Source: Candidatus Tayloriibacteriota bacterium
Lineage (GTDB): Bacteria; Patescibacteriota; Minisyncoccia; Phycocordibacterales; PALSA-1337
Reading direction: 5' to 3'
Assembly: GCA_016215455.1 (NCBI GenBank)
Contig: JACRJP010000002.1
Span: forward strand, 87,622-151,621
Length of the DNA: 64,000 bases
In this document: positions 8,931 to 59,495 of the stretch, in pieces
Position numbering within the stretch: the stretch's first letter is position 1
How the letters are laid out: each line of letters opens with the position of its first letter
Position numbers and translations under genes: made by a program
Notes under the pieces: model-generated
Seen by the model: only the letters and a program-made list of their open reading frames with translations
The model's database searches: none
What the model was told of the DNA's origin: nothing

Positions 8931-8941
8931 CGTAAAATAAT

Positions 8942-9238: not shown

Positions 9239-9266
9239 TACACTATAGAAGTATATGTTCCCTAAA

Positions 9267-9299
9267 CCTGCCGACTCTCACGAGTCGGCAGGTTTTTTA
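9267..9299 (+). terminator. Rho-independent terminator
   Basis: cctgccgactc-tca-cgagtcggcagg followed by TTTTTT. Confidence 0.7.
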
Positions 9300-9357
9300 T
9301 ATAAGATATATATCAAACTTGCATATCATTCTAAATATAGGTAGACTTTGAAAACTT

Positions 9358-10500
9358 ATGGCAACAACAAAAAAGACAGCAGCAGAAAATAAAGAAAAAA
9401 AGTTATACAAAGACAGTAAAATCAACAAACTTCCTGGTTCAATGGTAGAAATTACCGCAGCAATCCCTGTAGATGTTCTTTCGGGTTACCGCGCTCAAGC
9501 CCTCAAAAACATCAATGAAACTGTCACTATTGATGGTTTTCGTAAAGGAAACGTACCTGAAAAAACATTGATAGCTAAGGTAGGTGAGATGAATATCCTC
9601 TATGAAATGGCAGAACTCGCTCTCGAGAAAGTCTACCCCGCTATCATAACTGATGAAGCTCTTGATGTAATCGGTCGTCCTGAAATAAGTATCACGAAAA
9701 TTGCCGCTGACAATGATCTTGAATTTAAAATAACAACAGCCGTAACGCCAGAAGTAACTCTTGGTGATTATAAAAAAGCTCTCAAGAAAATAGCGAAGGG
9801 TGAAGAAAAAGCAGAAGTAACTGACGAAGATATCTCAAAGATTCTCGAGGAACTCCGCACCTCACATGCAAAGAGACTTGCTCATGACGCTCTTCATGCA
9901 CTCGAAGGATCAAACCCTGACGAGGAGAGTGAAGATGCACACCAGCACGCCCCTATTTCTGAAGAAGACATAAAGAAAAATCTCCCTGAATTGAATGATG
10001 ACTTTGCAAAGATTCTTGGAAATTTTGCAACACTCGATGAACTTAAGACTCGCATCAAAGAGAATGTTCTTGGAGAAAAAGAAAAGAAAATAAAGGATAA
10101 AGCACGTCTTGCACTCTCTGATGTACTTCTTGAGACAGCAACAATTGATATTCCAAAAATTCTCGTTGATGCAGAACTCACTCGATCAGAAGGACAATTC
10201 CGTGACGATATTTCACGCATGGGAATCAAGGTTGATGACTATCTCAAACACACCAAGAAAACTATCGACGATCTCAAAGAAGAATGGCGAGACTCAGCAA
10301 CAAAGAAAGCAAAGCTTCAACTTATTCTAAACACTATTGCTAAAGAAGAAAAAATTCGACCTGACGTAAAAGATATTGAGAAAGAAGTTGAGTATATTAC
10401 TGAGTACTACAAAGATGCAGACAAAGAACGTGCATATGTCTACGCAGAAAGTGTTCTCACTAATGAGCTTGTATTCAAATTCCTCGAGGAACAGAAATAA
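9358..10500 (+). CDS. tig: Trigger factor (ribosome-associated chaperone)
   Basis: N-terminal ribosome-binding motif GFRKGNVP. 380 aa with K/E-rich central and C-terminal arms. Confidence 0.8.
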   Translation: MATTKKTAAENKEKKLYKDSKINKLPGSMVEITAAIPVDVLSGYRAQALKNINETVTIDGFRKGNVPEKTLIAKVGEMNILYEMAELALEKVYPAIITDEALDVIGRPEISITKIAADNDLEFKITTAVTPEVTLGDYKKALKKIAKGEEKAEVTDEDISKILEELRTSHAKRLAHDALHALEGSNPDEESEDAHQHAPISEEDIKKNLPELNDDFAKILGNFATLDELKTRIKENVLGEKEKKIKDKARLALSDVLLETATIDIPKILVDAELTRSEGQFRDDISRMGIKVDDYLKHTKKTIDDLKEEWRDSATKKAKLQLILNTIAKEEKIRPDVKDIEKEVEYITEYYKDADKERAYVYAESVLTNELVFKFLEEQK

Positions 10501-13881: not shown

Positions 13882-15411
13882 ATGTCATTAAAAATAGTAG
13901 CGCTTCTTCTCTCCCTTGCAGGTGTTATCGGGGTTGGGATCGGCTACTATCTCCGCCTCATTATTTCCCTTGGAAAAAAGGGTTCGATGGAGCTCGAGAT
14001 TAAAGAAATGCTCTTAGGAGCCAAAGAAGAAGCGAAAAAAATAACAGCAGAGGCACAAAGTAAGTCAGAGAAGTTGATAGAGACAAGTAGAAGTGAGATT
14101 CGTGAAAAAGAAGAGAAGATAAAGCAGGTTGAGGCACGTTTAATCAAAAAAGAAGACTTACTTGATAAACGTCAGCAGGATATTGATAGAGAAGTAGAAA
14201 TTGTTAAGGAAAGAGTTGCTGAAATAAAAACCATTAAAGAACGCGCCGATAAACTCGAGGCGGATCGTCAGGCTGCACTCGAAAAAGCGGCAAATCTTAC
14301 TCAAGAACAAGCTCGAGCTGAAATTATCAGTACCATTGAGAAAAATGCAGCAGAAGATTTGTCAGTACGACTTCAAAAACTTGAGGTTGCTGGAGAAGAC
14401 GTGCTTGAAAATAAGGCAAAGGAAATTCTCGCAACATCAATCCAACGTCTCGCAAACTCAGTGGCAAGTGACATCATGTCAACGATTGTTCCCCTTCCTA
14501 ACGATGAGCTGAAAGGAAAGATAATTGGTAAAGAAGGTCGCAACATAAAGACATTTGAACGTATGACGGGAGTCGAAGTTATCATCGACGATACACCTGG
14601 TGCACTTACCATCTCTTCATTTGATCCTGTGCGACGCCAGGTGGCACGTATGGCTCTCGAAGAACTCATCAAAGACGGCCGTATACAACCAGCAAAGATC
14701 GAAAAGCTTGTTGAAGAATGCCAGGCGAATATCAATAAGATTATTAAAGAAAAAGGAGAACAAGCTGCATACGAATGTGGTGTTTTGAACCTTGATCCTC
14801 GAATTCTCTTGATTCTCGGCCGACTTCATTTTCGAACAAGTTATGGCCAGAATGTTTTGCAGCACTCAATCGAAATGTCACACATTGCAGGTATGATTGC
14901 AGCTGAAATCGGAGCAAACGTGAACGTTGCTAAGGCAGGTGCCCTTCTCCACGATCTTGGTAAGGCACTCGACCATGAAGTAGCCGGTACACATGTTGAA
15001 ATAGGTCGCAGAATTCTCCAGAAATTTAACGTTAGTGAAGATATTATCAAAGCGATGCAAGCGCATCATGAGGAATATCCTTACGAAACAGTTGAATCAC
15101 GAATCGTACAAACCGCTGATGCTATTTCCGGTGCACGTCCTGGTGCTCGACGCGACAGTATCGAAAACTATCTCAAGCGTCTTACAGAACTCGAGGCCAT
15201 TGCTAGTTCATTCCCTGGAGTTGAAAAATCATATGCTCTACAAGCAGGACGAGAAATTCGCATATTTGTTACTCCTGATAGTGTTGATGATTTTGCAGCT
15301 AAAAAACTTGCTCGAGACATCGCTCTCAAGATTGAAAAGGATCTTCGTTACCCTGGAGAAATCAAAGTCACGATCATTCGCGAAACACGAGCTATTGAGT
15401 TTGCGAGATAA
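13882..15411 (+). CDS. rny: Ribonuclease Y
   Basis: N-terminal TM, coiled-coil, KH domain (GKIIGKEGRNIKTFE) and HD domain (LHDLGKA...H). 509 aa. Confidence 0.9.
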   Translation: MSLKIVALLLSLAGVIGVGIGYYLRLIISLGKKGSMELEIKEMLLGAKEEAKKITAEAQSKSEKLIETSRSEIREKEEKIKQVEARLIKKEDLLDKRQQDIDREVEIVKERVAEIKTIKERADKLEADRQAALEKAANLTQEQARAEIISTIEKNAAEDLSVRLQKLEVAGEDVLENKAKEILATSIQRLANSVASDIMSTIVPLPNDELKGKIIGKEGRNIKTFERMTGVEVIIDDTPGALTISSFDPVRRQVARMALEELIKDGRIQPAKIEKLVEECQANINKIIKEKGEQAAYECGVLNLDPRILLILGRLHFRTSYGQNVLQHSIEMSHIAGMIAAEIGANVNVAKAGALLHDLGKALDHEVAGTHVEIGRRILQKFNVSEDIIKAMQAHHEEYPYETVESRIVQTADAISGARPGARRDSIENYLKRLTELEAIASSFPGVEKSYALQAGREIRIFVTPDSVDDFAAKKLARDIALKIEKDLRYPGEIKVTIIRETRAIEFAR

Positions 15412-15585
15412 ACTATACTTTTTGATGATTTCAAAATACTTTTGCATATTTAGCAATAGTGTTTTCTAATTCATAAGGCAATTGCGGCAAACTGTAGCCG
15501 TTATATAATGATTCACGAGGTAGGCTCTAGCGGAATCCCGTTAGATGTTGATTATTAGCGAGCGCAAGCTCAAATAAAGAACACT

Positions 15586-15858
15586 ATGAATAAAGCAGAT
15601 ATCATCGAAGCAGTGCACGCAGTATTGGGTGGTACAAAGGTACAAGCAGAACAAGCAGTTGAAGCAGTAGTCAACTCTATCATCAATACTCTTAAGAAAG
15701 GTGATGAGGTTTCAATCGCTGGCGTGGGTATCTTCTCAGTGAAGATGCGAGCTGCTCGAGAAGCTCGAAACCCTCGAACAGGTGAAGCTATCAAGGTTCC
15801 TGCTATGAAAGTTCCTAAGTTCCGAGCTGCTAAGGCTCTCAAGGACGCTGTAAAATAA
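15586..15858 (+). CDS. hup: DNA-binding protein HU
   Basis: 90 aa; MNKADIIEAV..., arm motif RNPRTGEAIKVPA. Confidence 0.9.
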   Translation: MNKADIIEAVHAVLGGTKVQAEQAVEAVVNSIINTLKKGDEVSIAGVGIFSVKMRAAREARNPRTGEAIKVPAMKVPKFRAAKALKDAVK

Positions 15859-15900
15859 TCAAGTCAGCGCACAAATAAGGCTCGACTCGAGCATTATTAC

Positions 15901-15929
15901 AAAAAACCACCATAAGGGTGGTTTTTTGT
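15901..15929. terminator. Bidirectional rho-independent terminator
   Basis: aaaaaaccaccataagggtggttttttg, flanked by A-run and T-run, between convergent hup and tRNA-Gly. Confidence 0.7.
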
Positions 15930-15969
15930 TATCTCTGTATTTTAAATAGGTAACCTTATACGAAACAGA

Positions 15970-16043
15970 TGGTGCGGGATGGGGGAATCGAACTCCCGAC
16001 AACAGTTTGGAAAACTGTAGTTTTACCACTAAACTAATCCCGC
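15970..16043 (-). tRNA. tRNA-Gly (anticodon UCC), CCA encoded
   Basis: Reverse complement gcgggattagtttagtggtaaaactacagttTTCCaaactgttgtcgggagttcgattcccccatcccgcacca folds as a cloverleaf. Anticodon loop is tttccaa. Confidence 0.8.
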
Positions 16044-17434: not shown

Positions 17435-18931
17435 ATGAATTCTACTGTAAAGGGAATAGGTGTGGAAGTACCGAAAGAAGTAATTACTGTCACCGAAACC
17501 CTAAAAAACAAGGGTTTTGAAGCCTATATCGTGGGTGGTTGTGTGCGCGATCTCCTTATAGGCAGAACGCCTAAAGACTGGGATGTAACTACAAACGCGA
17601 CTCCTGAAGAGATAATTACGGCTTTTCCTAAAACATTCTACGAAAACACCTTTGGTACTGTAGGAGTTGTTGATGAAAATACTACCGACGAAAGTTTGAA
17701 GGTGATAGAAGTAACTCCATACCGCCTTGAAACGGGCTATAGTGACTTTAGACGCCCGGATGAAGTAAAGTTCAGTAAACACCTCAAAGATGATCTTGAA
17801 CGTCGTGATTTCACGATTAACGCGTTAGCAGCGGATGTGGCTAATGGAAAAATTGCCAACATTCTTGATTTCCATAACGGACAAAAAGATTTAAAAGACA
17901 AAACCTTACGTGCGGTAGGGGATGCCAATGAAAGATTTCATGAGGATGCGCTTCGCAGCCTACGTGCCGTCAGAATAGCCACAGAATTAGGTTTCATGAT
18001 TAACAAGGAGACTGAGGAAGCTATTGTTACACATGTAACATTACTCAAACACATCTCTTGGGAGCGAATTCGAGACGAATTCAGTAGAATACTCATGTCA
18101 GACTACCCAGCTAATGGTATATTCTTGGCTCAACGACTTGGTATAATCAAAGAGATTGTACCTGAACTCGAAGCAGGAATAGGTGTAGAACAGAATCAGG
18201 CTCACGCTTTTGATGTATGGACACACCTCCTAAAGTCACTTCAGCATGCCGCTGATAAGAAATGGCCTCTCGATATCCGACTTGCGGCTCTATTTCACGA
18301 TATATCAAAACCTGAAACACGAAGATTTTCACATGAAACACAACAATGGACATTCTATGGCCACGAAGTAGTTGGTTCACGTGTAACACAGAAAATACTT
18401 GATCGACTCAAATACCCACGTAAAACAATAGACAAGGTTGTGAAACTCGTTCGTTGGCATATGTTCTTCTCAGACACAGAAAGTATTTCTCTATCGGCTG
18501 TACGTAGAATGATTGCTAATGTTGGCACAGAAAACATCTGGGATCTCATGAATGTTCGTATTTGTGACCGAATAGGGACGGGAAGACCTAAAGAAAACCC
18601 TTACAGACTCAGAAAATACCAATCAATGATCGAAGAAGCTCTTCATGACCCTGTTTCTGTCGCAATGCTCAAAATAGATGGAAAAAAGATAATGGAGGTT
18701 ACAAAAATAACACCGGGACCAAAAATAGGGCAGGTTCTTAATGCCTTACTTGAAGATGTCCTTGAAAATCCATCTCATAATACAGCCGAATATCTTGAAA
18801 ACACAGCCAAAAAACTGATCGAACTGAGTGACGAGGAGCTAAAAAAGAGAGGGGAAGCAGGAAAAGAGCTTCGTGAGGCCGAAGAAGAGAAGAATCTCGA
18901 GGAAATACGGAAAAAATACCACGTTTCATAA
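17435..18931 (+). CDS. cca: CCA-adding enzyme / tRNA nucleotidyltransferase with HD domain
   Basis: Head domain GGCVRDLLIGRTPKDWDVTT... RRDFTINALA, plus HD-domain His/Asp motifs. Lies immediately after the tRNA cluster. Confidence 0.8.
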   Translation: MNSTVKGIGVEVPKEVITVTETLKNKGFEAYIVGGCVRDLLIGRTPKDWDVTTNATPEEIITAFPKTFYENTFGTVGVVDENTTDESLKVIEVTPYRLETGYSDFRRPDEVKFSKHLKDDLERRDFTINALAADVANGKIANILDFHNGQKDLKDKTLRAVGDANERFHEDALRSLRAVRIATELGFMINKETEEAIVTHVTLLKHISWERIRDEFSRILMSDYPANGIFLAQRLGIIKEIVPELEAGIGVEQNQAHAFDVWTHLLKSLQHAADKKWPLDIRLAALFHDISKPETRRFSHETQQWTFYGHEVVGSRVTQKILDRLKYPRKTIDKVVKLVRWHMFFSDTESISLSAVRRMIANVGTENIWDLMNVRICDRIGTGRPKENPYRLRKYQSMIEEALHDPVSVAMLKIDGKKIMEVTKITPGPKIGQVLNALLEDVLENPSHNTAEYLENTAKKLIELSDEELKKRGEAGKELREAEEEKNLEEIRKKYHVS

Positions 18932-18952
18932 GAAACATACGGTAATTACAAC

Positions 18953-18992
18953 AAAAAAGCCCTTCTATCATTCGATAGAAGGGCTTTTTTGT
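18953..18992 (+). terminator. Rho-independent terminator
   Basis: aaaagcccttctatcattcgatagaagggctttttt. Confidence 0.7.
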
Positions 18993-19367
18993 TAATCATG
19001 AAACATATTTCAGATAAATCCCCATAAATAAACTAACCGCGCTTGAAGAACAAGAGTAGGAACAGTTCTTCGCACGCGGTTTTGAGAGAAATCCACGTGC
19101 TTGCCAAAAGGGGTTTAAGTAATTTTCTTCTAAAAAGAAGTGATTTCCTAGAGGGAAACCTAAAAATATACTTGTGAAGAAATACTTCAACCAGCCTAAG
19201 CCAAACAAGGGTTTTCAATAACTACCCACTACGTTGGAAAAGAGCTGGTGGACTAAATGTCCTATAGTCACCGTACCTCGGTGTATGTGACTTTTATCTG
19301 GGATTAGTATAGCAACTGTAAAAGACATGTAAAGGACTTACTGTGGATAAGTCACAATAAATGTCCT

Positions 19368-20135
19368 TTATTTTATTTCAAGAAGAATCGGGCAGTGATC
19401 AGAACCTGTAATTGTGTCCATAATATCAGCTTTTTTTACCTTCGACAGAATTTTGGGAGTAACAAAAAAATAATCGATTCGCCAACCAACATTACGTTCA
19501 CGAGCAAACGTTTTCATATCCCAATATGTATACCTACTCGTTGCGCGAGGGTTTAAATGTCGGAAAATATCTGTGTATCCATGACCAATAACTTCATCTA
19601 TCCATGCACGCTCTACAGGGAGAAATCCTGTGTTTTTCTCATTTTCTTTAGGTCGAGCAAGGTCAATTTCAGTATGCGCGGTGTTAACATCACCACAGAA
19701 TATAATTTCGTGACCTTTCTTTCGAAGAGTGTTGATGTATTTCAAAAAAGCATCATAAAACTTAAGCTTAAAATCAAGACGTTCTGGTCCACCACCTCCA
19801 TTGGGGAAATATGTATTAATAAAAACAAAATCTTTGAAGAAAAGGGCGAGGAATCGACCTTCCTGATCCAGAGCCTCTACCCCTAGACTATATTCAACTT
19901 TAAGTGGCTCTTCTTTTGAAAAAACGGCTACACCACTATAACCTTTACGCCCTTTTGAGTGGTCGAAAAAGGCATGGTACCCAGCCGGACTTCGTACACC
20001 ATCCTCGAGTTGATCTGGATGTGCCTTTGTCTCCTGAAGACAGAAAATATCGGCATTTTGTTGTAATAACCAATCAAAACCACCTTTTTTGATATTTGCA
20101 CGAATACCGTTGACGTTCCATGAGATTATTTTCAT
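19368..20135 (-). CDS. xth: Exodeoxyribonuclease III (AP endonuclease)
   Basis: MKIISWNVNGIRA start, ExoIII/APE1 family motifs. 255 aa. Confidence 0.85.
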   Translation of the reverse strand: MKIISWNVNGIRANIKKGGFDWLLQQNADIFCLQETKAHPDQLEDGVRSPAGYHAFFDHSKGRKGYSGVAVFSKEEPLKVEYSLGVEALDQEGRFLALFFKDFVFINTYFPNGGGGPERLDFKLKFYDAFLKYINTLRKKGHEIIFCGDVNTAHTEIDLARPKENEKNTGFLPVERAWIDEVIGHGYTDIFRHLNPRATSRYTYWDMKTFARERNVGWRIDYFFVTPKILSKVKKADIMDTITGSDHCPILLEIK

Positions 20136-20175: not shown

Positions 20176-21132
20176 CTATTTTCGACCCTTACCATGGAAC
20201 TTTTTATGGATGTTTCGTAATTCACTATCTGTGATATGTGTATAAATTTGGGTTGTTCCAATATTTGCATGACCTAACAGCATTTGAACTGAACGTAGAT
20301 CGGCACCGTTACGCAAAAGATCTGTGGCAAATGAGTGTCGAATAACGTGAGGAGTAACTTTTTTTGATATACCGACCTTTATTGCATAGTACTTCACAAT
20401 ACGTTCTACCGAGCGGGGAGTGAGGCGCATTGTTTCATTTTTACCTTGCGCAAGCTTGGCATTTCCTGTACGAACCTGTACAAACAAAGCATCATCCATA
20501 TCATCACGCTTGTCTAAATAGGCCTTAACCATAGCCTTTGCATCATCAGAAAGAAATACCACACGAACCTTTTCTCCCTTACCACGAACGGAGAATTCGT
20601 CTTGCTTTAGATTAATATCTCGAGGGAGACTACAAAGTTCTGATACACGTAGGCCTGTAGAGAAAAATAGCTCGAGAATGGCTCTATCTCTGAGTCCTTT
20701 GAGAGTTCCTGTGTCCGGAGCAGACATCAATCGTGATAAATCATCAAGAGAAATGAGATCGAGAGACCGTTCAGGGACTTTTGCCAACTCAATACGGTCC
20801 GGAGGGAGTGATTCAACTCCTCGACGAGCTAAATACTTGAGAAACGAGCGTAACGCAATAAGATAATAGTTCTGAGTACGTTTTTTCATTCCAGGAGCAG
20901 ACATACCCTTAGCTGCCTTACCCTCCTGTCGATTCAGCCATAGGCGGTACTCTCTCAAGAGGTTATCAGTGATCTGCTGAGGCTTATCTATCTTGGCAAA
21001 TTCAAAAAAACGAGAGATATAGTGGTCATAATTACCCACAGTACTGAGACTTCGACCCTTCTCAATTTCAACATATTGGAGGAATTCGAGCTTTAGGTCC
21101 TTGAGATTACGGGATGCAGCAGACATGTGCAT
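20176..21132 (-). CDS. xerC: Tyrosine recombinase XerC/XerD family
   Basis: C-terminal catalytic box RHSFATDLLRNGADLRSVQMLLGHANIGTTQIYTHI (R..H..R..Y). N-terminal SAM-like DNA-binding domain. Confidence 0.75.
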   Translation of the reverse strand: MHMSAASRNLKDLKLEFLQYVEIEKGRSLSTVGNYDHYISRFFEFAKIDKPQQITDNLLREYRLWLNRQEGKAAKGMSAPGMKKRTQNYYLIALRSFLKYLARRGVESLPPDRIELAKVPERSLDLISLDDLSRLMSAPDTGTLKGLRDRAILELFFSTGLRVSELCSLPRDINLKQDEFSVRGKGEKVRVVFLSDDAKAMVKAYLDKRDDMDDALFVQVRTGNAKLAQGKNETMRLTPRSVERIVKYYAIKVGISKKVTPHVIRHSFATDLLRNGADLRSVQMLLGHANIGTTQIYTHITDSELRNIHKKFHGKGRK

Positions 21133-21184
21133 AGTATAGCATGTACTTGCAGTCAGAAGACTTTCATGCTACTATGGTGCCAAC

Positions 21185-21451
21185 ATGTTAACGACACGAC
21201 AGAAACAAAAAATAATCAAAGAAACGGGGATTCACGGTAAAGATACTGGTTCTCCGGAAGTTCAGGTATCTCTTCTTACAAAGCGAATTGACGAACTTGC
21301 TTCACACCTCAAGAAACACAAGCAAGACAACCATTCTCGACGAGGACTTCTTGCGATGGTAGCTGACCGACAGTCACACCTCAATTACCTTAAGAAGAAG
21401 AATCCAAAGCGATACGCTTCTATTACGAAGAAACTCGAAATCAAGAAGTAA
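21185..21451 (+). CDS. rpsO: 30S ribosomal protein S15
   Basis: 88 aa; LTKRIDELASHLKKHKQDNHSRRGLL is the S15 signature. Confidence 0.9.
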   Translation: MLTTRQKQKIIKETGIHGKDTGSPEVQVSLLTKRIDELASHLKKHKQDNHSRRGLLAMVADRQSHLNYLKKKNPKRYASITKKLEIKK

Positions 21452-21457
21452 TCTCTC

Positions 21458-21484
21458 AAAAACCACCGCTACGGTGGTTTTTGT
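21458..21484 (+). terminator. Rho-independent terminator after rpsO
   Basis: aaaaccaccgctacggtggtttttg. Confidence 0.7.
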
Positions 21485-21522
21485 ACTTAATTTACCTTTA
21501 GTTAGTAGTAAAAAATCACACT

Positions 21523-22059
21523 ATGACAGTTATTAAACATTCAGAACAGAGAGTAGGAATCTTCATTGATGCCCAAAATCTCTACCACAGCGCAAAAAAT
21601 ATTTATCATGCACGCGTCAACTTTGGCCAAATCGTCAAAGATGCACTTGCAAACCGTGCCCTTATCCGTGCAGTAGCTTACGTAATCACCACAGAAGCAG
21701 GGGATGAAAAAGCCTTCTTTGAAGCACTTCTTAAAATGGGAATCGAAACAAAGACAAAAGATCTTCAAATTTTCTCAAGTGGTAACAAGAAAGCTGACTG
21801 GGACGTTGGTCTTGCGATCGATGCAGTCAAACTCGCACCGAAACTCGATGCAATTATCCTTGTAACAGGGGATGGGGACTTTATTCCACTCGTACAATAC
21901 CTTCAAATTCATGAGGGGTGCCAAGTAGAAGTAGTCTCATTTGGTAAATCAACATCAAGTAAGCTCATCGAAGCAGCTGATGACTTTTTTGACCTCGATC
22001 ACAACCCTCGAAAATATCTCATGGGAGCACGTCTCGGAGATTTCAAGAAAACAAAATAA
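21523..22059 (+). CDS. NYN-domain (LabA-like) protein, predicted RNA nuclease
   Basis: GIFIDAQNLYHSAK ... ADWDVGLAIDAV ... LVTGDGDFIPLV matches the NYN/LabA acidic catalytic residue pattern. Confidence 0.65.
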   Translation: MTVIKHSEQRVGIFIDAQNLYHSAKNIYHARVNFGQIVKDALANRALIRAVAYVITTEAGDEKAFFEALLKMGIETKTKDLQIFSSGNKKADWDVGLAIDAVKLAPKLDAIILVTGDGDFIPLVQYLQIHEGCQVEVVSFGKSTSSKLIEAADDFFDLDHNPRKYLMGARLGDFKKTK

Positions 22060-49523: not shown

Positions 49524-50747
49524 ATGTTTTGGAAACGAAAAATAACTACTGTTACTGACCCGGCACGGATAGATGCTTTTCTTGATCGTGGTATTGAAAA
49601 TGTATATCCAAATAAAGAATTTGTTCGGGCAAAAATGCTCCGTGGAGAACGACTATCAATGTTTCTTGGTATTGATCCAACAGGTCCAACACTTCATTTA
49701 GGTCATGTTATTCCAATAAAAAAACTTCAAGAGTTCCAACAATTGGGTCATCAGGCAATTTTACTCATCGGCGACTTTACAGGAATGATAGGTGATCCAA
49801 CGGATAAGAGTGCAACACGTAAAAAACTCACTCGTGAACAAGTTCTTTCTAATGCTTCTCTTTATAAGCAGCAGGCAGCAAAGTTTCTTGATTTCACAGG
49901 TCCTAATAAGGCATTAATAAAATACAACAACGACTGGCTCGGAAAAATGAACTTTGCTGAGGTTCTTGAACTTGCATCCCTTATGACAGTTGATCAGATG
50001 TTGAAACGAGATATGTTTCAAAAGAGAATCGAAGAGGGTAATCCTATTTATATTCATGAATTTTTGTACCCACTTCTTCAGGGATATGACAGTGTTGCGA
50101 TGAATGTAGATGGAGAGGTTGGAGGTAATGATCAAACATTTAACATGCTTGCTGGACGCGATCTTGTAAAGGCAATTAATAAAAAGGAAAAGTTTGTCAT
50201 TGCAAGTAAACTCCTTGTTGATTCGACAGGTAAGAAAATGGGGAAGACTGAGGGGAATATGGTAAGTCTTAATCAAACAGCAGATCAGATGTTTGGAAGT
50301 GTTTTGAGTTGGTCAGACGGACTCATCATTCCAGGACTTGAAATTTGTACCAACATATCTCTTGATGAGATTCGTGTAATTGAGAACAAAATGAAGGAGG
50401 GAATGAATCCTCGAGACGCTAAGGTTCTTCTCGCAAAAGAGATTGTTGGTATGTATCACGGAAAAGAAGCCGCTGACAAAGCAGAACAAAACTTCATTAA
50501 GACATTTAAAGAAGGAGCCTTACCAGAAGACGTTCAAACTGTTGCTGTCGCGAAGGGTGAGAAACTTGTTGATATTCTTGTTAAAGAAAAATTAGTTGAA
50601 TCAAAGAGTGATTTCCGTCGCCTCATTGAAGGTAATGCAGTATCAGTTATTGGAGGAGATGTTATTACATCACCTGACTACAGCATTGACGGGCCAGTTA
50701 AGATCAAGGTGGGTAAGCGTCGGTTTATTAGTATCGAGGTTCGTTAA
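49524..50747 (+). CDS. tyrS: Tyrosine--tRNA ligase
   Basis: HIGH-type motif PTLHLGH, KMSKS-type KKMGKT, C-terminal S4 domain. The ORF track begins at 49383; ATG 49524 fits, leaving only 19 bp between the divergent PBP and tyrS starts. Confidence 0.85.
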   Translation: MFWKRKITTVTDPARIDAFLDRGIENVYPNKEFVRAKMLRGERLSMFLGIDPTGPTLHLGHVIPIKKLQEFQQLGHQAILLIGDFTGMIGDPTDKSATRKKLTREQVLSNASLYKQQAAKFLDFTGPNKALIKYNNDWLGKMNFAEVLELASLMTVDQMLKRDMFQKRIEEGNPIYIHEFLYPLLQGYDSVAMNVDGEVGGNDQTFNMLAGRDLVKAINKKEKFVIASKLLVDSTGKKMGKTEGNMVSLNQTADQMFGSVLSWSDGLIIPGLEICTNISLDEIRVIENKMKEGMNPRDAKVLLAKEIVGMYHGKEAADKAEQNFIKTFKEGALPEDVQTVAVAKGEKLVDILVKEKLVESKSDFRRLIEGNAVSVIGGDVITSPDYSIDGPVKIKVGKRRFISIEVR

Positions 50748-50751
50748 TAAC

Positions 50752-50783
50752 AAAAAAACCGCCCTTGAGCGGTTTTTTTGTTA
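50752..50783. terminator. Bidirectional rho-independent terminator
   Basis: aaaaaaaccgcccttgagcggtttttttg. Confidence 0.7.
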
Positions 50784-50990
50784 TTATTCTTCCCACTTAT
50801 CACCGAATGGATTGATATCACTTTCATCAAGACTCTCCTCATCTTCCTCAGTTTTAACTCCTTCTGTTTCGATTTCCTCGTCTGTGGTGTCTTCGTCTCC
50901 AAGAATAAGGTCAGGGTCTACTATCTTTGTTTCGTCGTCCTTTTCTTCCTCGTCTTTTAGGTTTGTTGTTACGTCTCTTTCGTCGCTCAT
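50784..50990 (-). CDS. Small highly acidic protein (68 aa, about 45% Asp/Glu), hypothetical
   Basis: Intact ORF in an otherwise empty 350 bp gap; no homology recognisable. May not be expressed. Confidence 0.3.
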   Translation of the reverse strand: MSDERDVTTNLKDEEEKDDETKIVDPDLILGDEDTTDEEIETEGVKTEEDEESLDESDINPFGDKWEE

Positions 50991-51101: not shown

Positions 51102-51584
51102 TTATTTTGCGCGACCATGAATAGCGGCACATGTAAGTCCAATTGCGATAGCGTCATACTCATCATCATATTTTATTTTTTTATTGATCGAGATGAGTTT
51201 GTCGACCATTGATAGTATTTGTTTCTTGTCACTTTTTCCATATCCAGTAACTGCAATTTTTACAGCAATGGGTGTGTATTCGTACACAGTAAGATTGTTG
51301 TTGAGAGCTTGATATAGAATTGCTCCACGAGTTTCAGCAACATGAAGAGCTGTTTTTTGATTCTTTGTAAAAAAAAGAGTTTCCATAGCAAATACATCAG
51401 GAGAGTATTTTTCTATAACACGTGCCACCTCTAAACTAACTTGGTGGAGTCGTGTATAAAAAGTATCTTTAGGGTTGGTGGTATAACAGTCTGAATACAG
51501 AAGTGTTTCTTTTGTTGTTCCATTTTTATCAATCACCGCAATACCAAGTCGGTCGTATCCAGGATCTACAGCAAGAATTTTCAT
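51102..51584 (-). CDS. ruvC: Crossover junction endodeoxyribonuclease RuvC
   Basis: MKILAVDPGYDRLGIAV start with catalytic Asp/Glu pattern. 160 aa. Confidence 0.85.
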   Translation of the reverse strand: MKILAVDPGYDRLGIAVIDKNGTTKETLLYSDCYTTNPKDTFYTRLHQVSLEVARVIEKYSPDVFAMETLFFTKNQKTALHVAETRGAILYQALNNNLTVYEYTPIAVKIAVTGYGKSDKKQILSMVDKLISINKKIKYDDEYDAIAIGLTCAAIHGRAK

Positions 51585-51627: not shown

Positions 51628-52158
51628 TTATTCTGCGTTAGTAAACACCTCTTGCACTTCATCATTATCCTCGAGCTCTTCAATGAGTTTTTCAAGGATA
51701 GCCCCGTCCTCTTCGCTGATAGGGATCGTTGTCTGGGGTATCCAACCTTCAGATGTTTTTTGAAATGCCCACGTTGCACTTCCTTGAGCTGCAAGTTCAA
51801 AACCGTTTTTTGAGAGAATGTGTTTAACTTCTTGAGCTGCTTTATTACGATTTTCAGTAAGGCCCTCAATGATTAAGGCTGAGCCACCTGGACCATATGA
51901 TTCATAGGTGACAGACTCCATCGCTGCAGAGTTGTCAGCAGTTGCTTTTTTCACTGCTCGGTCGATTGTGTCATTCGGTACGTTTTCTTTCTTTGCTTTT
52001 TCAATAGCATTTACAAGACCAGGTGATCGAAGGTTTCCACCTGCTTTTTTTGCTTCTGCTGTAATTAACTTCACCATTTTTGTGAAAGTCTTACTCTTTT
52101 GAGCATCAGTCTTTGCTTTTTGATGCTTAATCTTTGAATATTTATTGTGTCCAGCCAT
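51628..52158 (-). CDS. yebC: YebC/PmpR-family DNA-binding regulator (short form)
   Basis: MAGHNKYSKIKHQKAKTDAQKSKTFTKM is the family's invariant N-terminus. Confidence 0.8.
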   Translation of the reverse strand: MAGHNKYSKIKHQKAKTDAQKSKTFTKMVKLITAEAKKAGGNLRSPGLVNAIEKAKKENVPNDTIDRAVKKATADNSAAMESVTYESYGPGGSALIIEGLTENRNKAAQEVKHILSKNGFELAAQGSATWAFQKTSEGWIPQTTIPISEEDGAILEKLIEELEDNDEVQEVFTNAE

Positions 52159-52212: not shown

Positions 52213-53244
52213 CTATAATAACTTTCCAGAGCCTTTCATATCGAGGTGTGCGTATGCTTTGTCTGTTACTGTTCGTCCACGTGGAGTACGTTCAAGAAGT
52301 CCAAGTTGTATAAGGTAAGGTTCGTAGACTTCTTCGATAGTAGCCTGTTCTTCTGAAAGGGCAGCACCAAGAGTGTTGAGTCCAACAGGACCTCCTCCAA
52401 ATTTATCAATCATAATCTTGAGAATGTCTCGGTCAGCAGCGTTAAGACCCAGTTCATCCACTCCGAGCATTGCGAGTGTTTTTACTACTGTGTCATGGGA
52501 TAGAACTCCACCATTATGCACTTGAGCAAAATCACGACACCGTTTGAGAAAGTAGTTTGCAGTACGTGGTGTGAAACGACTTCGTTTTGAAATTTCAGCT
52601 ACAGCCTTGGGATCAATCTTAATACCGAGAATTTTTGCAGAACGCTCTATGATCTGACCAATTTCATCATTAGTATAAAATTCAAGCTTAAATACACCAC
52701 CCGAGAAACGTGATCGAAGAGGGGATGAGATCATTGCGATACGTGTTGTTGCTGCAATCAGTGTAAATTGAGGAAGTTCGAGTTGGATAGTTCGAGCAGA
52801 CGGACCTTTACCGATAATAATATCAAGGGACCCTGATTCCATAGCAGGGTAGAGTACTTCTTCAATTGCTTTGTTGAGACGATGAATTTCATCGATGAAC
52901 AATATATCACCATGAGAAAGGTTGGTAAGAATTGAAGCAAGGTCACCCACCTTGAGAATTGCTGGCCCCGATGTCACTTTCATTTGAGCTTTTGTTTCCT
53001 TTGCTATGAGATGAGCGAGTGTTGTTTTACCGAGTCCTGGAGGACCATAAAAAAGTATATGTTCTGGAGGATGTTCACGCTGTTGTGCCGCTGTAAGAAG
53101 AATATGGAGGTTATCTTTGATGTTTTTCTGACCAATGTATTCGTTCCATGTGCCAGGACGAAGGGTATAGTCGAGGTGATTAACCTCTTTATCCTGAGTC
53201 TGTTGCGTTTCTTTTGGTTTTTTGGTCGTTTTCTCGGTACTCAT
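52213..53244 (-). CDS. ruvB: Holliday junction branch migration helicase RuvB
   Basis: LRP..W.EYIGQ N-terminal motif, Walker A GPPGLGKTTLA, Walker B ILFIDEIHR. ATG 53244 chosen over the ORF-track 53280. Confidence 0.9.
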   Translation of the reverse strand: MSTEKTTKKPKETQQTQDKEVNHLDYTLRPGTWNEYIGQKNIKDNLHILLTAAQQREHPPEHILFYGPPGLGKTTLAHLIAKETKAQMKVTSGPAILKVGDLASILTNLSHGDILFIDEIHRLNKAIEEVLYPAMESGSLDIIIGKGPSARTIQLELPQFTLIAATTRIAMISSPLRSRFSGGVFKLEFYTNDEIGQIIERSAKILGIKIDPKAVAEISKRSRFTPRTANYFLKRCRDFAQVHNGGVLSHDTVVKTLAMLGVDELGLNAADRDILKIMIDKFGGGPVGLNTLGAALSEEQATIEEVYEPYLIQLGLLERTPRGRTVTDKAYAHLDMKGSGKLL

Positions 53245-53402
53245 GGTTATATGGGTATATTCTAACCTGACTTGACACAAAATACTATTTATGCTAGGAT
53301 ACTAGATGTAAACTTTTAAATAAGTTGGGTTCTATACAACTCCTGTAAAGCGGCACACCGAGTACTCTCGATGGCCGTTTTTACATATAATATCAAGTTC
53401 AT

Positions 53403-53550
53403 AAATCTCTAAGCAATTTAGCCTATTTGCGTAGGTTAACTGATGTTCGTCTAAGGACGTCCTGGTTCCACCCCGGTGTTCTTACTGGGTCTATCCTCGG
53501 GGGTTCGTTTAGCTTTTGGTGATCTCATTAAAAGTATTGCTTAGAGATTT
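53403..53550. repeat. 148 bp element bounded by perfect 15 bp inverted repeats with GC-rich palindrome-rich core
   Basis: aaatctctaagcaat (53403-53417) pairs with attgcttagagattt (53536-53550). Core contains aggacgtcct and ccaccccggtg palindromes. Confidence 0.5.
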
Positions 53551-53726
53551 CTGGACTTGATTGCACTATCGCGCATCTATTCTGTTGTAAATCGCTTTTC
53601 TCTCAATACCTTCTCTCACGTTTCTTTGAAGCGTTCTTTTGCTGCATTCAATACTACTCTTCCTTTTTTAAAATTCAATTGACACTGCAAAAATTCTGCT
53701 TCATAACAGAATTTCTTGTTAAAAAA

Positions 53727-55400
53727 CTAGTATTCAGTGATGTCAATCACACGTTCGAGCTCATCAAGAGTTGTAATTCCTTTGAGTACTTTGAGAACAC
53801 CATCTTGTGGCATTGTGAGAAGTCCTTGTGGTCGTGCAGCGTCACGAATGAGTTTTTCGCTTGATCCAGTTTCAATGAGATTGTTAACTGCTTCATCAAT
53901 GAGAATGCCTTCATACACACCAACTCGGCCTTTGTATCCAGTCTTATTACACTTATCACACCCAACAGCTTCCCAAACTTTTGTGTGTTCAGTAGGGATT
54001 TCGTTTTTATCAGTAATAGCATTGAGCACTTTCTCAACTTTTTCAAGAACTGGTCCAGTGAGAGTTGATTCTTTTCTACATACAGGACAAAGTTTTCGAA
54101 CGAGACGTTGAGCAAGAGCAATGGTTATAGCAGAACTAATTACTCGAGAGTTGATACCTAGATCGAGAAGGCGGGGGAATGAGCCAGCTGCATTGTTGGT
54201 GTGGAGAGTAGAAAATACCAAGTGACCCGTCAATGCAGAGTTGATGGCGATTGCCGCTGTCTCGCTATCTCGAATTTCTCCCACCATGATGATGTCAGGA
54301 TCTTGTCGGAGAGCTGAGCGGAGTCCTTCAAGGAAGGTGTAACCCTGGTCATTAACTTGTGTTTGTACGATACCAGGAAGATGGTATTCGATAGGGTCTT
54401 CAATGGTAATAATCTTAATTGCAGGAGCATGTACCTTCTTGAGAAGAGCATAGAGGGTTGTTGTTTTTCCTGAGCCAGTAGGACCTGTTGTAAGGAGCAT
54501 GCCGTTTGGTTTGTCGATCTGGCGGAGAATAGTGGCAAGTAACTTATCATGAATACCAAGTTCCTCAAGCGGAACAGAAATTGATTTTGGATTCAAAATA
54601 CGAAGTACCACCGATTCGTTATATGCACCCGGTAGAATCGAGGTTCGAATTTCAATATCAGTATCTTTGAGGTGCACACTAAAGCGACCATCCTGAGAAT
54701 CTTTTTTGATATTAAGTTTGAGTCCTGAAAGAAGTTTGATACGAGAAAGGAGAAGGGTATAAGTACTTGTGTCAAAACGAAGAACATCCTGAAGTACACC
54801 GTCGAGTCGATAACGAATACGAATGTATTCTTCTTCTGGTTCGATATGAACGTCAGATGCTCCTGTTGCAAGTGCACCAGCGAGAATTGTTTCGAGAATA
54901 CGCGAGATACGGTAGCTTTTCTTCTGAGTAAAGATGTCAGTAAGAATCTCTTGAACTTGAGGAAGGCCTGTTACTTGATCAACAATCTTTGCAATTTCAT
55001 CATTTGAAATTTCAAGTGAACCCGCTTTTGTTTCATAGGCAAATGAAAGATCTTTGTAAGCATTCCAACCTTTTTCAAGACTTGCTGTTGAGGCTACGTT
55101 TACATTCACTTCAAATCCTTTTTCTTCAAGAGATTTAATAACAGCAACAGTCTTCTCGTCTCCTGGCTGACGAGCGGCCACCTTTAGTTTTTTGTCGAAA
55201 ATAGCATAAGCAACGATACGTGCTTCTCGAGAATCTTTCTCATCAATGAGACGAAGAGCATCGGTGTTAACAGCTACGGTTGATAGGTCAACATAGTCGA
55301 GACTGTATTTAGCACCAAGAAGTTGAACAAGATCTTCTTCCTCTTTTTTTAGTAGCTCTGCGAGCTTATGTTTCTGCTTGTCTTCGTCAAATTGAACCAT
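53727..55400 (-). CDS. Second PilB/GspE-family secretion ATPase
   Basis: GspE N-terminal domain (LGAKYSLDYVDLS), Walker A GPTGSGKTTT, tetracysteine motif CPVC...CDKC. 557 aa. Confidence 0.8.
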   Translation of the reverse strand: MVQFDEDKQKHKLAELLKKEEEDLVQLLGAKYSLDYVDLSTVAVNTDALRLIDEKDSREARIVAYAIFDKKLKVAARQPGDEKTVAVIKSLEEKGFEVNVNVASTASLEKGWNAYKDLSFAYETKAGSLEISNDEIAKIVDQVTGLPQVQEILTDIFTQKKSYRISRILETILAGALATGASDVHIEPEEEYIRIRYRLDGVLQDVLRFDTSTYTLLLSRIKLLSGLKLNIKKDSQDGRFSVHLKDTDIEIRTSILPGAYNESVVLRILNPKSISVPLEELGIHDKLLATILRQIDKPNGMLLTTGPTGSGKTTTLYALLKKVHAPAIKIITIEDPIEYHLPGIVQTQVNDQGYTFLEGLRSALRQDPDIIMVGEIRDSETAAIAINSALTGHLVFSTLHTNNAAGSFPRLLDLGINSRVISSAITIALAQRLVRKLCPVCRKESTLTGPVLEKVEKVLNAITDKNEIPTEHTKVWEAVGCDKCNKTGYKGRVGVYEGILIDEAVNNLIETGSSEKLIRDAARPQGLLTMPQDGVLKVLKGITTLDELERVIDITEY

Positions 55401-56166: not shown

Positions 56167-56619
56167 ATGCTTACGATTTCACATACGGTTGCCGAAACAG
56201 AATCACTCGCTTCTTTTTTTATATCTAAGTTAGTTGCTCGACCTCCAACCGCAGTTGCTACAGTTCTTGGTTTAAATGGTGATCTTGGATCAGGCAAGAC
56301 TGCATTTACAAAGGGAATAGCTCAAGCCCTCCATGTTCAGGAGCTCGTTACGAGTCCTACATTTGTTATTGAAAAGATATACCAACTCGACAATTCTCGT
56401 TTTGCTAACCTTATTCATATTGATGCATATCGACTTGATAAGGGGGAAGATTTGGTGAGACTTGGTTGGGATGCCATCATTAAAGACCCAAAGAATCTTA
56501 TTATCGTTGAATGGCCACAGAATGTAAAAGATATTATGCCAGCTAATACTATTGATATTGTGTTCACTTTCGTTGATCCTGCTACACGAGGAATTGAGAT
56601 TAAAGAAATACAACAGTAG
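56167..56619 (+). CDS. tsaE: tRNA threonylcarbamoyladenosine biosynthesis ATPase TsaE
   Basis: Walker A GDLGSGKTAFTKG and IHIDAYRL motif. ATG 56167 preferred over ORF-track 56086. Confidence 0.75.
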   Translation: MLTISHTVAETESLASFFISKLVARPPTAVATVLGLNGDLGSGKTAFTKGIAQALHVQELVTSPTFVIEKIYQLDNSRFANLIHIDAYRLDKGEDLVRLGWDAIIKDPKNLIIVEWPQNVKDIMPANTIDIVFTFVDPATRGIEIKEIQQ

Positions 56620-57035
56620 AGTAAAAATAAAAAGAGGTTAGGTGCCGGCAGGTAGCGCCCTACACACCACTACACGGGACATATACCCACCGGCACCAAC
56701 TCGAACTTAGGAGGGGGCTTTACTTCCCTCACTACGCCGCAACCCATCCGGGCTCGACATCTTTTCAATAGTTTATGATCAGGTCCGGCGGGCGTAAGCA
56801 ACACACAGCCTGCCCGCCGGACCATCACCCACAACCACAGCTACAACACACAAACTTGCAGGTGACCTCAGTCAGTCAATCCGCGTATCCATGTATCTCT
56901 TAACCTAGCAGTATGGCTGACGAAGATGAAGAGTGATCAAACTATTCTATCTAGCGTAATTGTACGCCCGTAGAGTTTTTGTTGTCAAATTTCTTTTTAG
57001 CACACTTTTTATTTGGTTAGGATATAATCTCATTA

Positions 57036-59495
57036 ATGCCAAAGACACCAGCAAAAACTACGTCACAAGAGCGATTAATCCTTCTTGATGCACATGCAAT
57101 CCTTCATCGTGCATATCATGCTCTTCCTGATTTCATGTCGACGAAAGGAGAACCTACAGGAGCTTTGTATGGTCTTGCAACAATGCTCATTAAGATCATT
57201 CAGGACCTGAAGCCAACATATATTGTTGCGTGTTACGATCTTCCTCAACCAACATATCGTCATGAGGTATATAAGGATTATAAAGCGGGACGTAAAAAGG
57301 CTGAACCTGAGCTTGTCTCACAGATGAAACGGTCACGTGACGTGTTCACTGCTTTTGATATTCCTATATATGACAATCCAGGATTTGAAGCTGATGACAT
57401 GCTCGGTACGATTGTTGAACAGGTTCTCAAAGGAAAAGAATTTAAAAATATCGATGTTGTTATTGCTTCAGGTGATATGGACACTCTTCAGCTTATTGAA
57501 GGAAAAAGAATCCAGGTATACACGTTAAAGAAGGGAATAAAAGATACTATTTTGTACGATGAAGAAGGAGTAATGAATCGATTTGGTTTTGGTCCAAAAC
57601 TTTTACCCGACTACAAAGGTCTTCGAGGAGACACTTCAGATAATATTATCGGTATTAAAGGTATTGGAGAAAAAACTGGCAGTATTCTCATTCAAACATT
57701 CGGTACGATTGAAAATATGTATAAGGAGCTCGATAAGAGCGACGAGCCTTTTAAAAAAGTAGGAATTACTCCACGTATCATAGACCTTCTAAAAAATGGA
57801 AAAGAAGAAGCAATGTTCAGTAAGATGCTCGCTTCAATTCGTCGAGATGCTCCAATTAAATTTTCTTTGCCGCATCCATGGAAGAGTGCTATTGATATGA
57901 AAAAGATCGATATGTTATGTGCAGATCTCGATTTCCGTACTCTCGGTGCTCGTGTTCGTGAAGCTATATCAGGTAAGATTGCATCAACAAAAAATAGCTC
58001 AACACAGTCTTCTGATGAGGGTTATCATGTTGCGTATGGAGAAGGAGAGGGTGATATAGAAACACATGATGGTGATACTCCAGAAACTATCGATGAAAAA
58101 GAATTACAGGAGACATTACTCGCTCTCTGGGTGGCTGATTCAAACAAAACGAATCCAACACTCGATGATATCTACACATTTGCTGGTGTTCGTAACTTTG
58201 CTCAGGCACGTGAGATTATATTCAACGAACTCAAAAAACGTGGAGGTGAAAAGATTCTTGAGACAATAGAAAAGCCACTTACACCTGTTCTTAAAAAGAT
58301 GCAGGACTATGGTATCAAGATTGATGTTACATATCTCAAGAAACTTTCGGAGGACTATCATATTGAGCTCGAAAAGATTCAAAAGAAGATTTGGGAATAT
58401 GCCGGTGAGGAATTTAATGTTGCTTCTCCAAAACAACTAGGTGAAATTTTGTTCGTAAAGATGGGACTCAAGGTAAAGAATCAAAAAAAGACAGGAACAG
58501 GTGCTTTTTCAACAAAAGAATCTGAGCTCGAAAAACTTCGTGAGACACACCCGATTATTGAGGAGATTCTCAAGTATCGAGAATTCGCAAAGCTTTTGGG
58601 TACATATATTGATGTGATTCCTACACTCGTTGATGATGGTAATCGTCTTCATACAACATTTATTCAATCAGGTGCTGCGACTGGTCGCATGGCATCTGAA
58701 AATCCTGGTATTCAAAATATTCCGAATAAGACAGAACTCGGACGCGCTATTCGTCGGGCCTTTATTGCGGAGAAGGGAATGAAGTTGCTTGCATTCGATT
58801 ATTCTCAAATTGAATTACGTATCGCAGCTTTTCTATCAGGTGATGAGAAACTCATTTCTATTTTTAAAAATGGTGAAGACGTTCACACCGCAGTTGCTTC
58901 ACAAGTATTTGGTATTCCGCTTGATAAGGTTGATAAAGAAATGCGACGACAAGCAAAAGTCATTAACTTCGGTGTCATGTATGGTATGGGAGTAAATGCA
59001 TTACGACAAAATCTTGGTACGGATCGTGCTGCTGCTCAGAAATTCTATGATGAATACTTTGCTAAGTTTTCAGGACTCGCAACATATCTTGAAAAGACAA
59101 AAGCAGAGACTGCTCTAAAAGGCTATACTGAGACGTTTTTTGGACGTCGCCGTTACTTCGAGGGTATTCGTTCAAAACTTCCTTTTATCCGTGCATCTGC
59201 TGAACGTATGGCAATCAATGCTCCTATTCAAGGAACTGAAGCGGATATTGTAAAGATCGCTATGATACGAGTGGATGAGTGGCTTACTGAAAAGAAATTC
59301 GGTGATAGTGTTCGTATGCTACTTCAAGTGCATGATGAACTTGTGTTTGAGGTTGAAGAAAAAATGATTCCTAAGATTGTCCCTGATATTCAGAGAATTA
59401 TGCAATCTGTTATTGATCCAAAAGAAACAAAGGGTGTTGTTTGTACAACTGAAGCGAAGGTGGGGGATACATGGGAAGATATGGATAAGTTATAA
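57036..59495 (+). CDS. polA: DNA polymerase I (5'-3' exonuclease + polymerase domains)
   Basis: FEN-type N-terminus (LLDAHAILHRAYHAL). Polymerase motifs RRQAKVINFGVMYGMG and QVHDELVFE. 819 aa. Confidence 0.9.
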   Translation: MPKTPAKTTSQERLILLDAHAILHRAYHALPDFMSTKGEPTGALYGLATMLIKIIQDLKPTYIVACYDLPQPTYRHEVYKDYKAGRKKAEPELVSQMKRSRDVFTAFDIPIYDNPGFEADDMLGTIVEQVLKGKEFKNIDVVIASGDMDTLQLIEGKRIQVYTLKKGIKDTILYDEEGVMNRFGFGPKLLPDYKGLRGDTSDNIIGIKGIGEKTGSILIQTFGTIENMYKELDKSDEPFKKVGITPRIIDLLKNGKEEAMFSKMLASIRRDAPIKFSLPHPWKSAIDMKKIDMLCADLDFRTLGARVREAISGKIASTKNSSTQSSDEGYHVAYGEGEGDIETHDGDTPETIDEKELQETLLALWVADSNKTNPTLDDIYTFAGVRNFAQAREIIFNELKKRGGEKILETIEKPLTPVLKKMQDYGIKIDVTYLKKLSEDYHIELEKIQKKIWEYAGEEFNVASPKQLGEILFVKMGLKVKNQKKTGTGAFSTKESELEKLRETHPIIEEILKYREFAKLLGTYIDVIPTLVDDGNRLHTTFIQSGAATGRMASENPGIQNIPNKTELGRAIRRAFIAEKGMKLLAFDYSQIELRIAAFLSGDEKLISIFKNGEDVHTAVASQVFGIPLDKVDKEMRRQAKVINFGVMYGMGVNALRQNLGTDRAAAQKFYDEYFAKFSGLATYLEKTKAETALKGYTETFFGRRRYFEGIRSKLPFIRASAERMAINAPIQGTEADIVKIAMIRVDEWLTEKKFGDSVRMLLQVHDELVFEVEEKMIPKIVPDIQRIMQSVIDPKETKGVVCTTEAKVGDTWEDMDKL

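Follow-up and report, generated by a model that had tools for sequence, protein, structure and literature searches.

A putative structured small RNA gene divergent from ruvB in Patescibacteria of the Parcubacteria type

The gap between ruvB and pilB

The window referred to throughout is the whole 64-kb stretch of DNA that was analysed. Within it, a gap without coding sequence separates ruvB, of the ruvB-yebC-ruvC operon, from a gene for a PilB-like ATPase of type II/IV secretion (Table 1); the coordinates of the gap and the identity of both flanking genes, as given in a first-pass annotation of this DNA, are borne out by Pfam. Another pilB-like gene is found at about 4380-5930. On the minus strand, a hairpin and T-run close to the end of the pilB-like gene that borders the gap, read from the sequence and its fold, are likely to be the intrinsic terminator of that gene. 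The gap had been described as holding far more non-coding DNA than is found elsewhere, which is overstated: gaps of 390-560 bp between ORFs of at least 100 aa also occur in other parts of the window. ORF-free stretches by the same measure lie at 8930-9358, 15411-15970, 21132-21523, and 56619-57036, and an Rfam scan at gathering thresholds gave no match in these four.

Table 1. Features of the ruvB-pilB region, with positions in the window.
Feature	Position	Strand	Remarks
ruvC	51102-51584	minus	same strand as ruvB, after yebC
yebC	51628-52158	minus	downstream of ruvB, same strand
ruvB	52213-53244	minus	Pfam RuvB_N, AAA_lid_4, RuvB_C; divergent from the putative RNA gene
Gap without coding sequence	53245-53726		between ruvB and the T2SSE/PilB-like ATPase gene
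Promoter, -35 box TTGACA	53272-53277	+	sigma-70-type; 17-nt spacer to the -10 box
Promoter, extended -10 box TGCTAGGAT	53292-53300	+	10 of 12 in promoter scan; TG extension
Variable leader	53301-53390	+	about 90 nt in the window; own hairpin (53344-53385) ending in a U-run
RNA core	53392-53561	+	covariance-model match, fold z-score, pair counts
P1, closing stem	53392-53418 / 53535-53561	+	pairs the two ends of the RNA; 26 bp
H1, 5' hairpin	53419-53425 / 53432-53438	+	optional, sequence free
Central arm, linker helix	53442-53444 / 53507-53509	+	
Central arm, invariant AGGA/UCCU helix	within 53448-53457 / 53494-53503	+	
Central arm, CCUGGU/ACUGGG helix	53461-53466 / 53484-53489	+	
Central arm, variable tip	53470-53473 / 53477-53479	+	
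H5, 3' hairpin	53513-53521 / 53526-53534	+	9 bp, abuts P1
Terminator-like hairpin with T-rich tail	53618-53644	+	terminator scan; downstream of the RNA
Hairpin ATTCTG-N8-CAGAAT, then T-run	53695-53716	minus	read from sequence and minus-strand fold
pilB-like type II/IV secretion ATPase gene	53727-55400	minus	Pfam T2SSE, E = 8e-120; convergent with the putative RNA gene

The gap carries an inverted repeat with arms of 26 nt (53392-53417 and 53536-53561) that are 92% complementary and lie 118 nt apart. The perfect 15-nt arms that the first-pass annotation had placed at 53403-53417 and 53536-53550 are exactly there, the repeat in fact being longer. Markov-shuffled windows contain 0.34 pairs of perfect inverted 13-mers within 200 nt, whereas the real window contains 31 such pairs at nine sites; eight of these sites are ordinary short-loop hairpins and the sole long-spacer site is the repeat in the ruvB-pilB gap, which is therefore more than a chance occurrence. 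Long perfect hairpins with stems of 13-20 bp and short loops, probably strong terminators, are seen at 8041-8079, 18950-18993, and 50745-50786. The sequence enclosed by the repeat had been called a GC-rich core; with a GC content of 0.46, against 0.40 for the whole window and 0.27-0.36 for the flanks, it is only mildly richer.

Searches for known RNA families and further copies

The element in the gap corresponds to no catalogued RNA family. At gathering thresholds, an Rfam scan of the whole window returned five tRNAs only, none of them in the gap; permissive scans with Rfam 15 (E <= 10, both strands, searches of 236-561 nt) gave no family match for the window or for two of the homologous loci described below (L031 and L010), the names returned being noise (SpF36, Bacilli-1, mir-263, SNORA77, sodium riboswitch, HOTTIP). 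The family is thus absent from Rfam. ARAGORN placed no tRNA or tmRNA in the gap and found the five true tRNAs elsewhere in the window. This bears on the suggestion of a tRNA-like or tmRNA-related fragment, which had been raised from a T-loop-like sequence, GGGGGTTCG: neither ARAGORN nor Rfam recognizes a tRNA or tmRNA there, and the sequence is peculiar to this window and is not kept in homologues. The palindrome aggacgtcct, also singled out previously, is present in the window and is likewise specific to it, the homologues having the non-palindromic AGGACRUYCUGG.

Several further RNA classes were considered against their conserved motifs and architectures, in addition to the Rfam results. SRP RNA, RNase P RNA, 5S rRNA, and tmRNA are unlike the element in fold and conserved bases and gave no Rfam match. 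The CUGAUG of hammerhead ribozymes occurs in only two members, again with no Rfam match; a tracrRNA-like similarity (AAGGNNNGUCC) and a bridge RNA, the latter on sequence and architecture, were also rejected, neither having an Rfam match. A retron msr-msd RNA, again unmatched in Rfam, was rejected since the locus has no reverse transcriptase gene, the neighbours being the convergent pilB-like gene and the divergent ruvB. The literature searched on Patescibacteria, Saccharibacteria, Parcubacteria, and the candidate phyla radiation held nothing relevant on 6S RNA or on structured RNAs.

Further copies of the element, as would be expected of the MITE-like element that had been proposed, were not found. 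Within the 64-kb window, second copies of the unit or of its arm occur at chance level only; blastn of phage and plasmid collections gave no copy; and the flanks of the unit (ATAAT and TGCAC) are not duplicated, there being no target-site duplication. Metagenome and viral sequences were searched with the pattern TCTCTAAG-N-AGGAC-N-ATCCT, which was too loose and returned 240 stretches, mostly chance matches; filtering by nhmmer and a covariance model left 17 metagenome loci and no viral ones. A tighter viral pattern gave one chance match, inside an ORF of 732 aa, which the covariance model rejected.

Distribution of the element

Relatives of the locus were fetched by a scan with the RuvB protein, one genome per species, which placed the window among Patescibacteria; the labels of the records include Nomurabacteria, Zambryskibacteria, Ryanbacteria, Kaiserbacteria, Sungiibacteriota, Paceibacterota, and Minisyncoccia. 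By nhmmer, the element was detected immediately upstream of ruvB in nine of the closest loci. R1, a covariance model made from ten sequences, matches the element in 20 of the loci fetched by RuvB, and a second model (R2) adds L063, for a total of 21 genome loci; neither model finds an element in about 55 ruvB loci from phyla other than Patescibacteria. The 17 metagenome loci, confirmed by covariance model, were obtained with the RNA pattern and without ruvB as bait. In the window, the covariance-model match spans 53391-53562, with scores of 148 bits (R1) and 130 bits (R2). R1 also gives a weak match of 19.6 bits at 18949-18994, on one of the long perfect hairpins, inside the large gap 18931-19368.

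The family therefore comprises 38 loci besides the window, all from Patescibacteria, each with a single element that lies upstream of ruvB on the opposite strand; the RuvB proteins of these loci are 58-81% identical to that of the window. The gene order pilB-RNA-ruvB is conserved, and in the metagenome members whose flanks are present the element always has the 3' end of pilB on one side and the 5' end of ruvB on the other. In L018, L022, and L012 pilB is displaced, and in the flank of L010 it is not seen, yet the RNA is still beside ruvB; the link of the RNA to ruvB is tighter than that to pilB. The neighbouring genes of the family loci gave no hint to a partner protein beyond ruvB. The family is found in Patescibacteria of the Parcubacteria/Paceibacteria type, across several candidate phyla, a breadth that is bounded by rough E-values and the use of close relatives.

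Six members (L002, L008, L011, L012, L014, and L018) are labelled 'Candidatus Saccharibacteria'; their RuvB proteins are 65-81% identical to that of the window and they share this RNA with loci labelled Nomurabacteria, Zambryskibacteria, and Minisyncoccia, so the labels may be unreliable. L021 has, at about 3610-3790 on the minus strand and upstream of its ruvB, an RNA with a four-way junction that follows the same design, with the promoter TTGACA-N17-TGCTATGCT and the closing stem AAAUUGCAGGCAA / UUGCCUGCAAAUU. It is probably a divergent family member, and as both R1 and R2 miss it, the family is probably wider than the models detect.

Fold and covariation

Read from the comparative sequence evidence, the two arms of the inverted repeat are the closing stem (P1) of a conserved structured RNA. 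The core is about 170 nt in the window and 131-185 nt across members, and P1 is a near-perfect duplex of 20-30 bp. From the tip of P1 a 5' hairpin (H1, absent from L014, L016, L017, and L018), a central arm, and a 3' hairpin (H5) extend (Table 1). The central arm consists, in order, of a linker helix, the AGGA/UCCU helix, an internal loop, a YCUGGU/ACUGGR helix in which tandem U-G and G-U pairs are nearly invariant, and a variable tip. Minimum-free-energy folds of 11 members are tight three- or four-way junctions with few unpaired bases. On the plus strand the window element folds with -69.7 kcal/mol (z = -7.3) and on the minus strand with -47.4 kcal/mol (z = -4.5); the whole gap on the minus strand has z = -4.8.

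Support for the fold comes from two alignments. RNAalifold on a MAFFT alignment, which was fitted to no structure, gives 43 pairs, 27 of them with compensatory changes. In the 31-sequence model alignment, which was fitted to the covariance model and so leans towards the structure, 46 of 63 pairs have changed on both sides, and 90% of cells are paired, compared with 73% after shuffling and 39-51% with the partner slid; the covariation score is 0.47 as against 0.19 in shuffled alignments, and none of 500 shuffles reaches any of the observed measures. The linker strands also pair together with covariation (columns 59-61 with 134-136, and the pair 65/129).

Conserved nucleotides are almost all in helices: the inner 13 bp of the closing stem (AUCUCUAAGCAAU / AUUGYUUAGAGAU), the invariant AGGA/UCCU helix together with a flanking C and UA, and the CUGG/CUGG helix. 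Hairpin sequences, junction strands, and single-stranded linkers vary freely, and no conserved single-stranded motif was found across the family alignment.

Strand, promoter, and transcript ends

The RNA is predicted to be read from the plus strand of the window, opposite to ruvB and pilB. Across the family, predicted pairs on this strand include 153 G-U against 37 A-C, the latter being no commoner than other types of mismatch, and the strand that corresponds to the plus strand is the more stably folded one in 20 of 21 homologues. A promoter of the form TTGACA-N16-18-(TG)nTAnnnT is present and perfect on the RNA strand of all 39 family loci; in the window it would place the transcription start of the small RNA near 53307.

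The leader is not conserved: depending on the locus, between 7 and 216 nt separate the -10 box from the foot of P1. In the window the leader is some 70 nt longer than in the closest relatives and is bounded by its own 15-nt inverted repeat (53298-53312 / 53380-53394), with a perfect TATAAT at 53386-53391, immediately after the leader hairpin. The stretch 53298-53394 might hold a terminator or attenuator that has been inserted, or else a second promoter; as modelled, the leader hairpin with its U-run could end transcription before the RNA core.

At the other end, the terminator-like hairpin downstream of P1 in the window is a possible 3' end of the primary transcript, to judge by its sequence; in many homologous loci a canonical terminator or a U-run directly follows P1. 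In L013, L104, L109, L170, and L176 the sequence CTCC(T/A)TTATTCAC is conserved, as a mark of one subgroup, right after the closing stem; its opposite strand, GTGAATAA(T/A)GGAG, resembles a ribosome-binding site.

Coupling to ruvB

In 30 of the 39 loci the promoter reads TTGACAT, the opposite strand of which is ATGTCAA, so that the -35 box and an ATG of the ruvB strand overlap. Where it was read, this ATG is the ruvB start codon (Met-Ser-...), as is visible in L001-L005, L007, L008, L010, L011, L013, L015, and L031; in L018 it is the ORF start. The -35 box and the first codons of ruvB therefore share bases. The ruvB ATG of L018 is only some 35 nt away from the foot of the RNA stem, so that a promoter for ruvB must sit inside the RNA gene or on its far side, a leaderless message excepted. 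Where a Patescibacteria ruvB locus has no such RNA, the opposite-strand promoter is missing as well.

The window and L022 have an intact RNA although their promoter is uncoupled from the start of ruvB. Most relatives begin ruvB with ATGTCAAG; the window has GTGTCAAG in its place at 53278, which is not in frame, and its ruvB opens 34 nt farther along, with the ATG at 53244 (or with an in-frame TTG at 53280). An apparent insertion of about 34 nt thus separates promoter and start codon.

Candidate promoters for ruvB beyond the 3' end of the RNA are seen in L002, L004, and L005; over all loci, the best scores for such a promoter are alike on the two strands (8.7 versus 8.4). A CAATTGACA motif at 53676-53685, between the 3' end of the RNA and the pilB terminator, is shared by the five closest relatives only, L001, L002, L004, and L005 included, and has no matching -10 box on the plus strand. 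On the ruvB strand it could, from its sequence, serve as a -35 box (TTGAAT-N16-TAGTAT in the window); as a general ruvB promoter it was rejected, being convincing by eye in the five closest relatives and not general over all loci.

Proposed function of the RNA

The preferred reading, with a probability of roughly 0.6, is that the gap holds an independently transcribed, structured small RNA of about 170 nt that is stable, probably binds a protein, and belongs to a family outside Rfam. That an independent structured RNA gene is present is highly likely taken by itself, and the conservation, strong covariation, strand-specific G-U pairs, and own promoter agree with the stable structured RNA that was one of the two readings of the first-pass annotation. 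How the RNA works is a more tentative matter: action as a stable, independently transcribed RNA that binds a protein is given somewhat less than an even chance. The variable leader suggests that a primary transcript would be processed, being trimmed to the stem-closed core. The combination of free loops and linkers, conserved duplexes, and a long terminal helix favours a shaped ligand or scaffold for a protein; the core would then act by its shape, as ligand, scaffold, or decoy of a conserved protein, and not as a seed-pairing RNA. Transcription of the RNA probably also competes with that of the ruvB-yebC-ruvC operon, given the head-to-head overlap of its strong promoter with the 5' end of ruvB; such promoter competition or interference would be a secondary, and probably genuine, effect.

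As a possible extension, held with less confidence than protein binding as such, the RNA may be part or ligand of an undescribed conserved ribonucleoprotein of Parcubacteria-type Patescibacteria, in a housekeeping class that would rank with 6S RNA and Y RNA. The protein would recognize the invariant helical motifs, and the RNA gene would be locked head-to-head onto the ruvB start codon. That a four-way junction of the RNA mimics a Holliday junction and titrates RuvABC is very unlikely because several members have no fourth arm.

Alternative explanations

The main rival, itself rather unlikely, is a purely antisense role, in which the RNA is a cis-encoded antisense or transcriptional-interference regulator of ruvB and is folded for stability only. 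The promoter would fire head-on, and polymerase collision together with cleavage of the duplex by RNase III would set expression of ruvB-yebC-ruvC, the RNA being complementary to any long ruvB leader. The overlap of the -35 box with the ruvB-strand ATG in 30 of the 39 loci speaks for this, as do the tighter linkage to ruvB than to pilB, the joint absence of RNA and opposite-strand promoter from other Patescibacteria ruvB loci, the spacing in L018 (which would put the ruvB promoter inside or beyond the RNA gene, leaderless initiation apart), and the candidate ruvB-strand promoters beyond the RNA in L002, L004, and L005. However, no consistent ruvB-strand promoter lies beyond the RNA when all loci are considered, the ribosome-binding region of ruvB would be left uncovered by the RNA, and the RNA is intact in the window and L022, where its promoter is uncoupled from the ruvB start. 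Moreover, an antisense RNA needs neither invariant helical motifs nor compensatory changes that preserve hairpins of free sequence. By comparison with a shaped, protein-binding RNA, an element acting in cis on the ruvB strand, be it a 5' leader or a structure for processing or stability between pilB and ruvB cistrons, is a far weaker candidate. On the map the element immediately precedes ruvB, the reverse strand could still adopt most of the fold, so that an antisense or ruvB-leader transcript may yet have a role, and both the minus-strand element and the whole gap on that strand fold better than shuffles; but the other strand folds better in 20 of 21 homologues, the conserved promoter points away from ruvB, G-U pairs greatly outnumber A-C, and the tandem U-G/G-U pairs would be C-A/A-C mismatches on the ruvB strand. 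No riboswitch family matches, and the next gene on the RNA's strand side, pilB, is convergent. The riboswitch or ruvB leader suggested by the first-pass annotation is accordingly unlikely, since the evidence assigns the RNA to the other strand.

A 6S-like closing stem had also been raised. That the RNA is a counterpart of 6S RNA (ssrS, RF00013) specific to this lineage, abundant and binding the housekeeping RNA polymerase holoenzyme by mimicry of promoter DNA, is improbable, if less so than a cis-acting element. The present RNA is similar in its size of about 170 nt, in the pairing of its two ends in a long closing stem, and in its single-copy, syntenic gene with a strong promoter and conserved position; 6S RNA is a rod of 160-200 nt with closing and apical arms, to be set beside a core of 131-185 nt here. 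The present RNA shares with Firmicutes 6S RNA a variable apical arm and, 3' of the centre, a hairpin, and in lactic acid bacteria the 6S gene adjoins the recombination-associated gene rarA, which is only a loose parallel to ruvB (PMC8414754). The lack of anything relevant in the literature on 6S RNA or ssrS in Patescibacteria, Saccharibacteria, and the candidate phyla radiation would also fit. In contrast to 6S RNA, however, the centre is no large single-stranded bubble: the linkers pair with covariation, and the 11 folded members form tight three- or four-way junctions. The closing stem, almost perfect and nearly invariant in sequence, has none of the typical 6S bulges, and no 6S covariance model matches the window, L031, or L010 even at E <= 10. 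A MITE or other miniature mobile element with terminal inverted repeats is hardly tenable. The 26-nt inverted arms do bound a unit of about 170 bp, but these arms covary as an RNA helix, no second copy is present in the 64-kb window and no confirmed one in phage, plasmid, and viral collections, and target-site duplications are absent. Moreover, the 38 other loci, in which RuvB identity falls to about 58%, have one syntenic copy each, with no presence/absence polymorphism at the orthologous site.

Comparison with other RNA systems

Y RNA and YrlA resemble the present RNA in having a long conserved stem that joins the two ends and bears a multi-helix module, and in conservation of the stem as at a protein-binding site. 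They differ in that the present RNA has no tRNA-like T-arm/D-arm module, has free hairpin loops, gives no Rfam match, and is linked to ruvB.

The pairs oxyS-oxyR, gcvB-gcvA, and micF-ompC, which serve as comparisons for a divergent small RNA gene, share with this locus an RNA divergent from a protein gene and promoters in one short intergenic region. The OxyS, GcvB, and MicF RNAs use conserved single-stranded seeds for base pairing, and their conservation extends to close relatives only, whereas the present RNA is conserved in its helices, its neighbour ruvB is not a regulator, and its -35 box overlaps the start codon of that neighbour.

The raiA motif, OLE, and ROOL-type candidates are orphan conserved structured RNAs of unknown function. 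Like them, the present RNA was discovered by comparative sequence analysis and has strong covariation and a multi-helix fold; it differs in sequence, in fold (no Rfam match), and in host group, and is smaller than OLE or ROOL.

Implications for Patescibacteria

A large part of bacterial diversity belongs to the Patescibacteria, whose genomes are tiny and of which hardly any are in culture; very few details of their non-coding RNAs are known. The overlap of the -35 box with the ruvB start is a case of compact genome architecture that ties an RNA gene to a recombination-repair operon. An invariant duplex, a consensus promoter, and a spread over several candidate phyla suggest that the RNA is abundant and important, and its partner would open a new way into the regulation or the RNA-protein biology of Patescibacteria.
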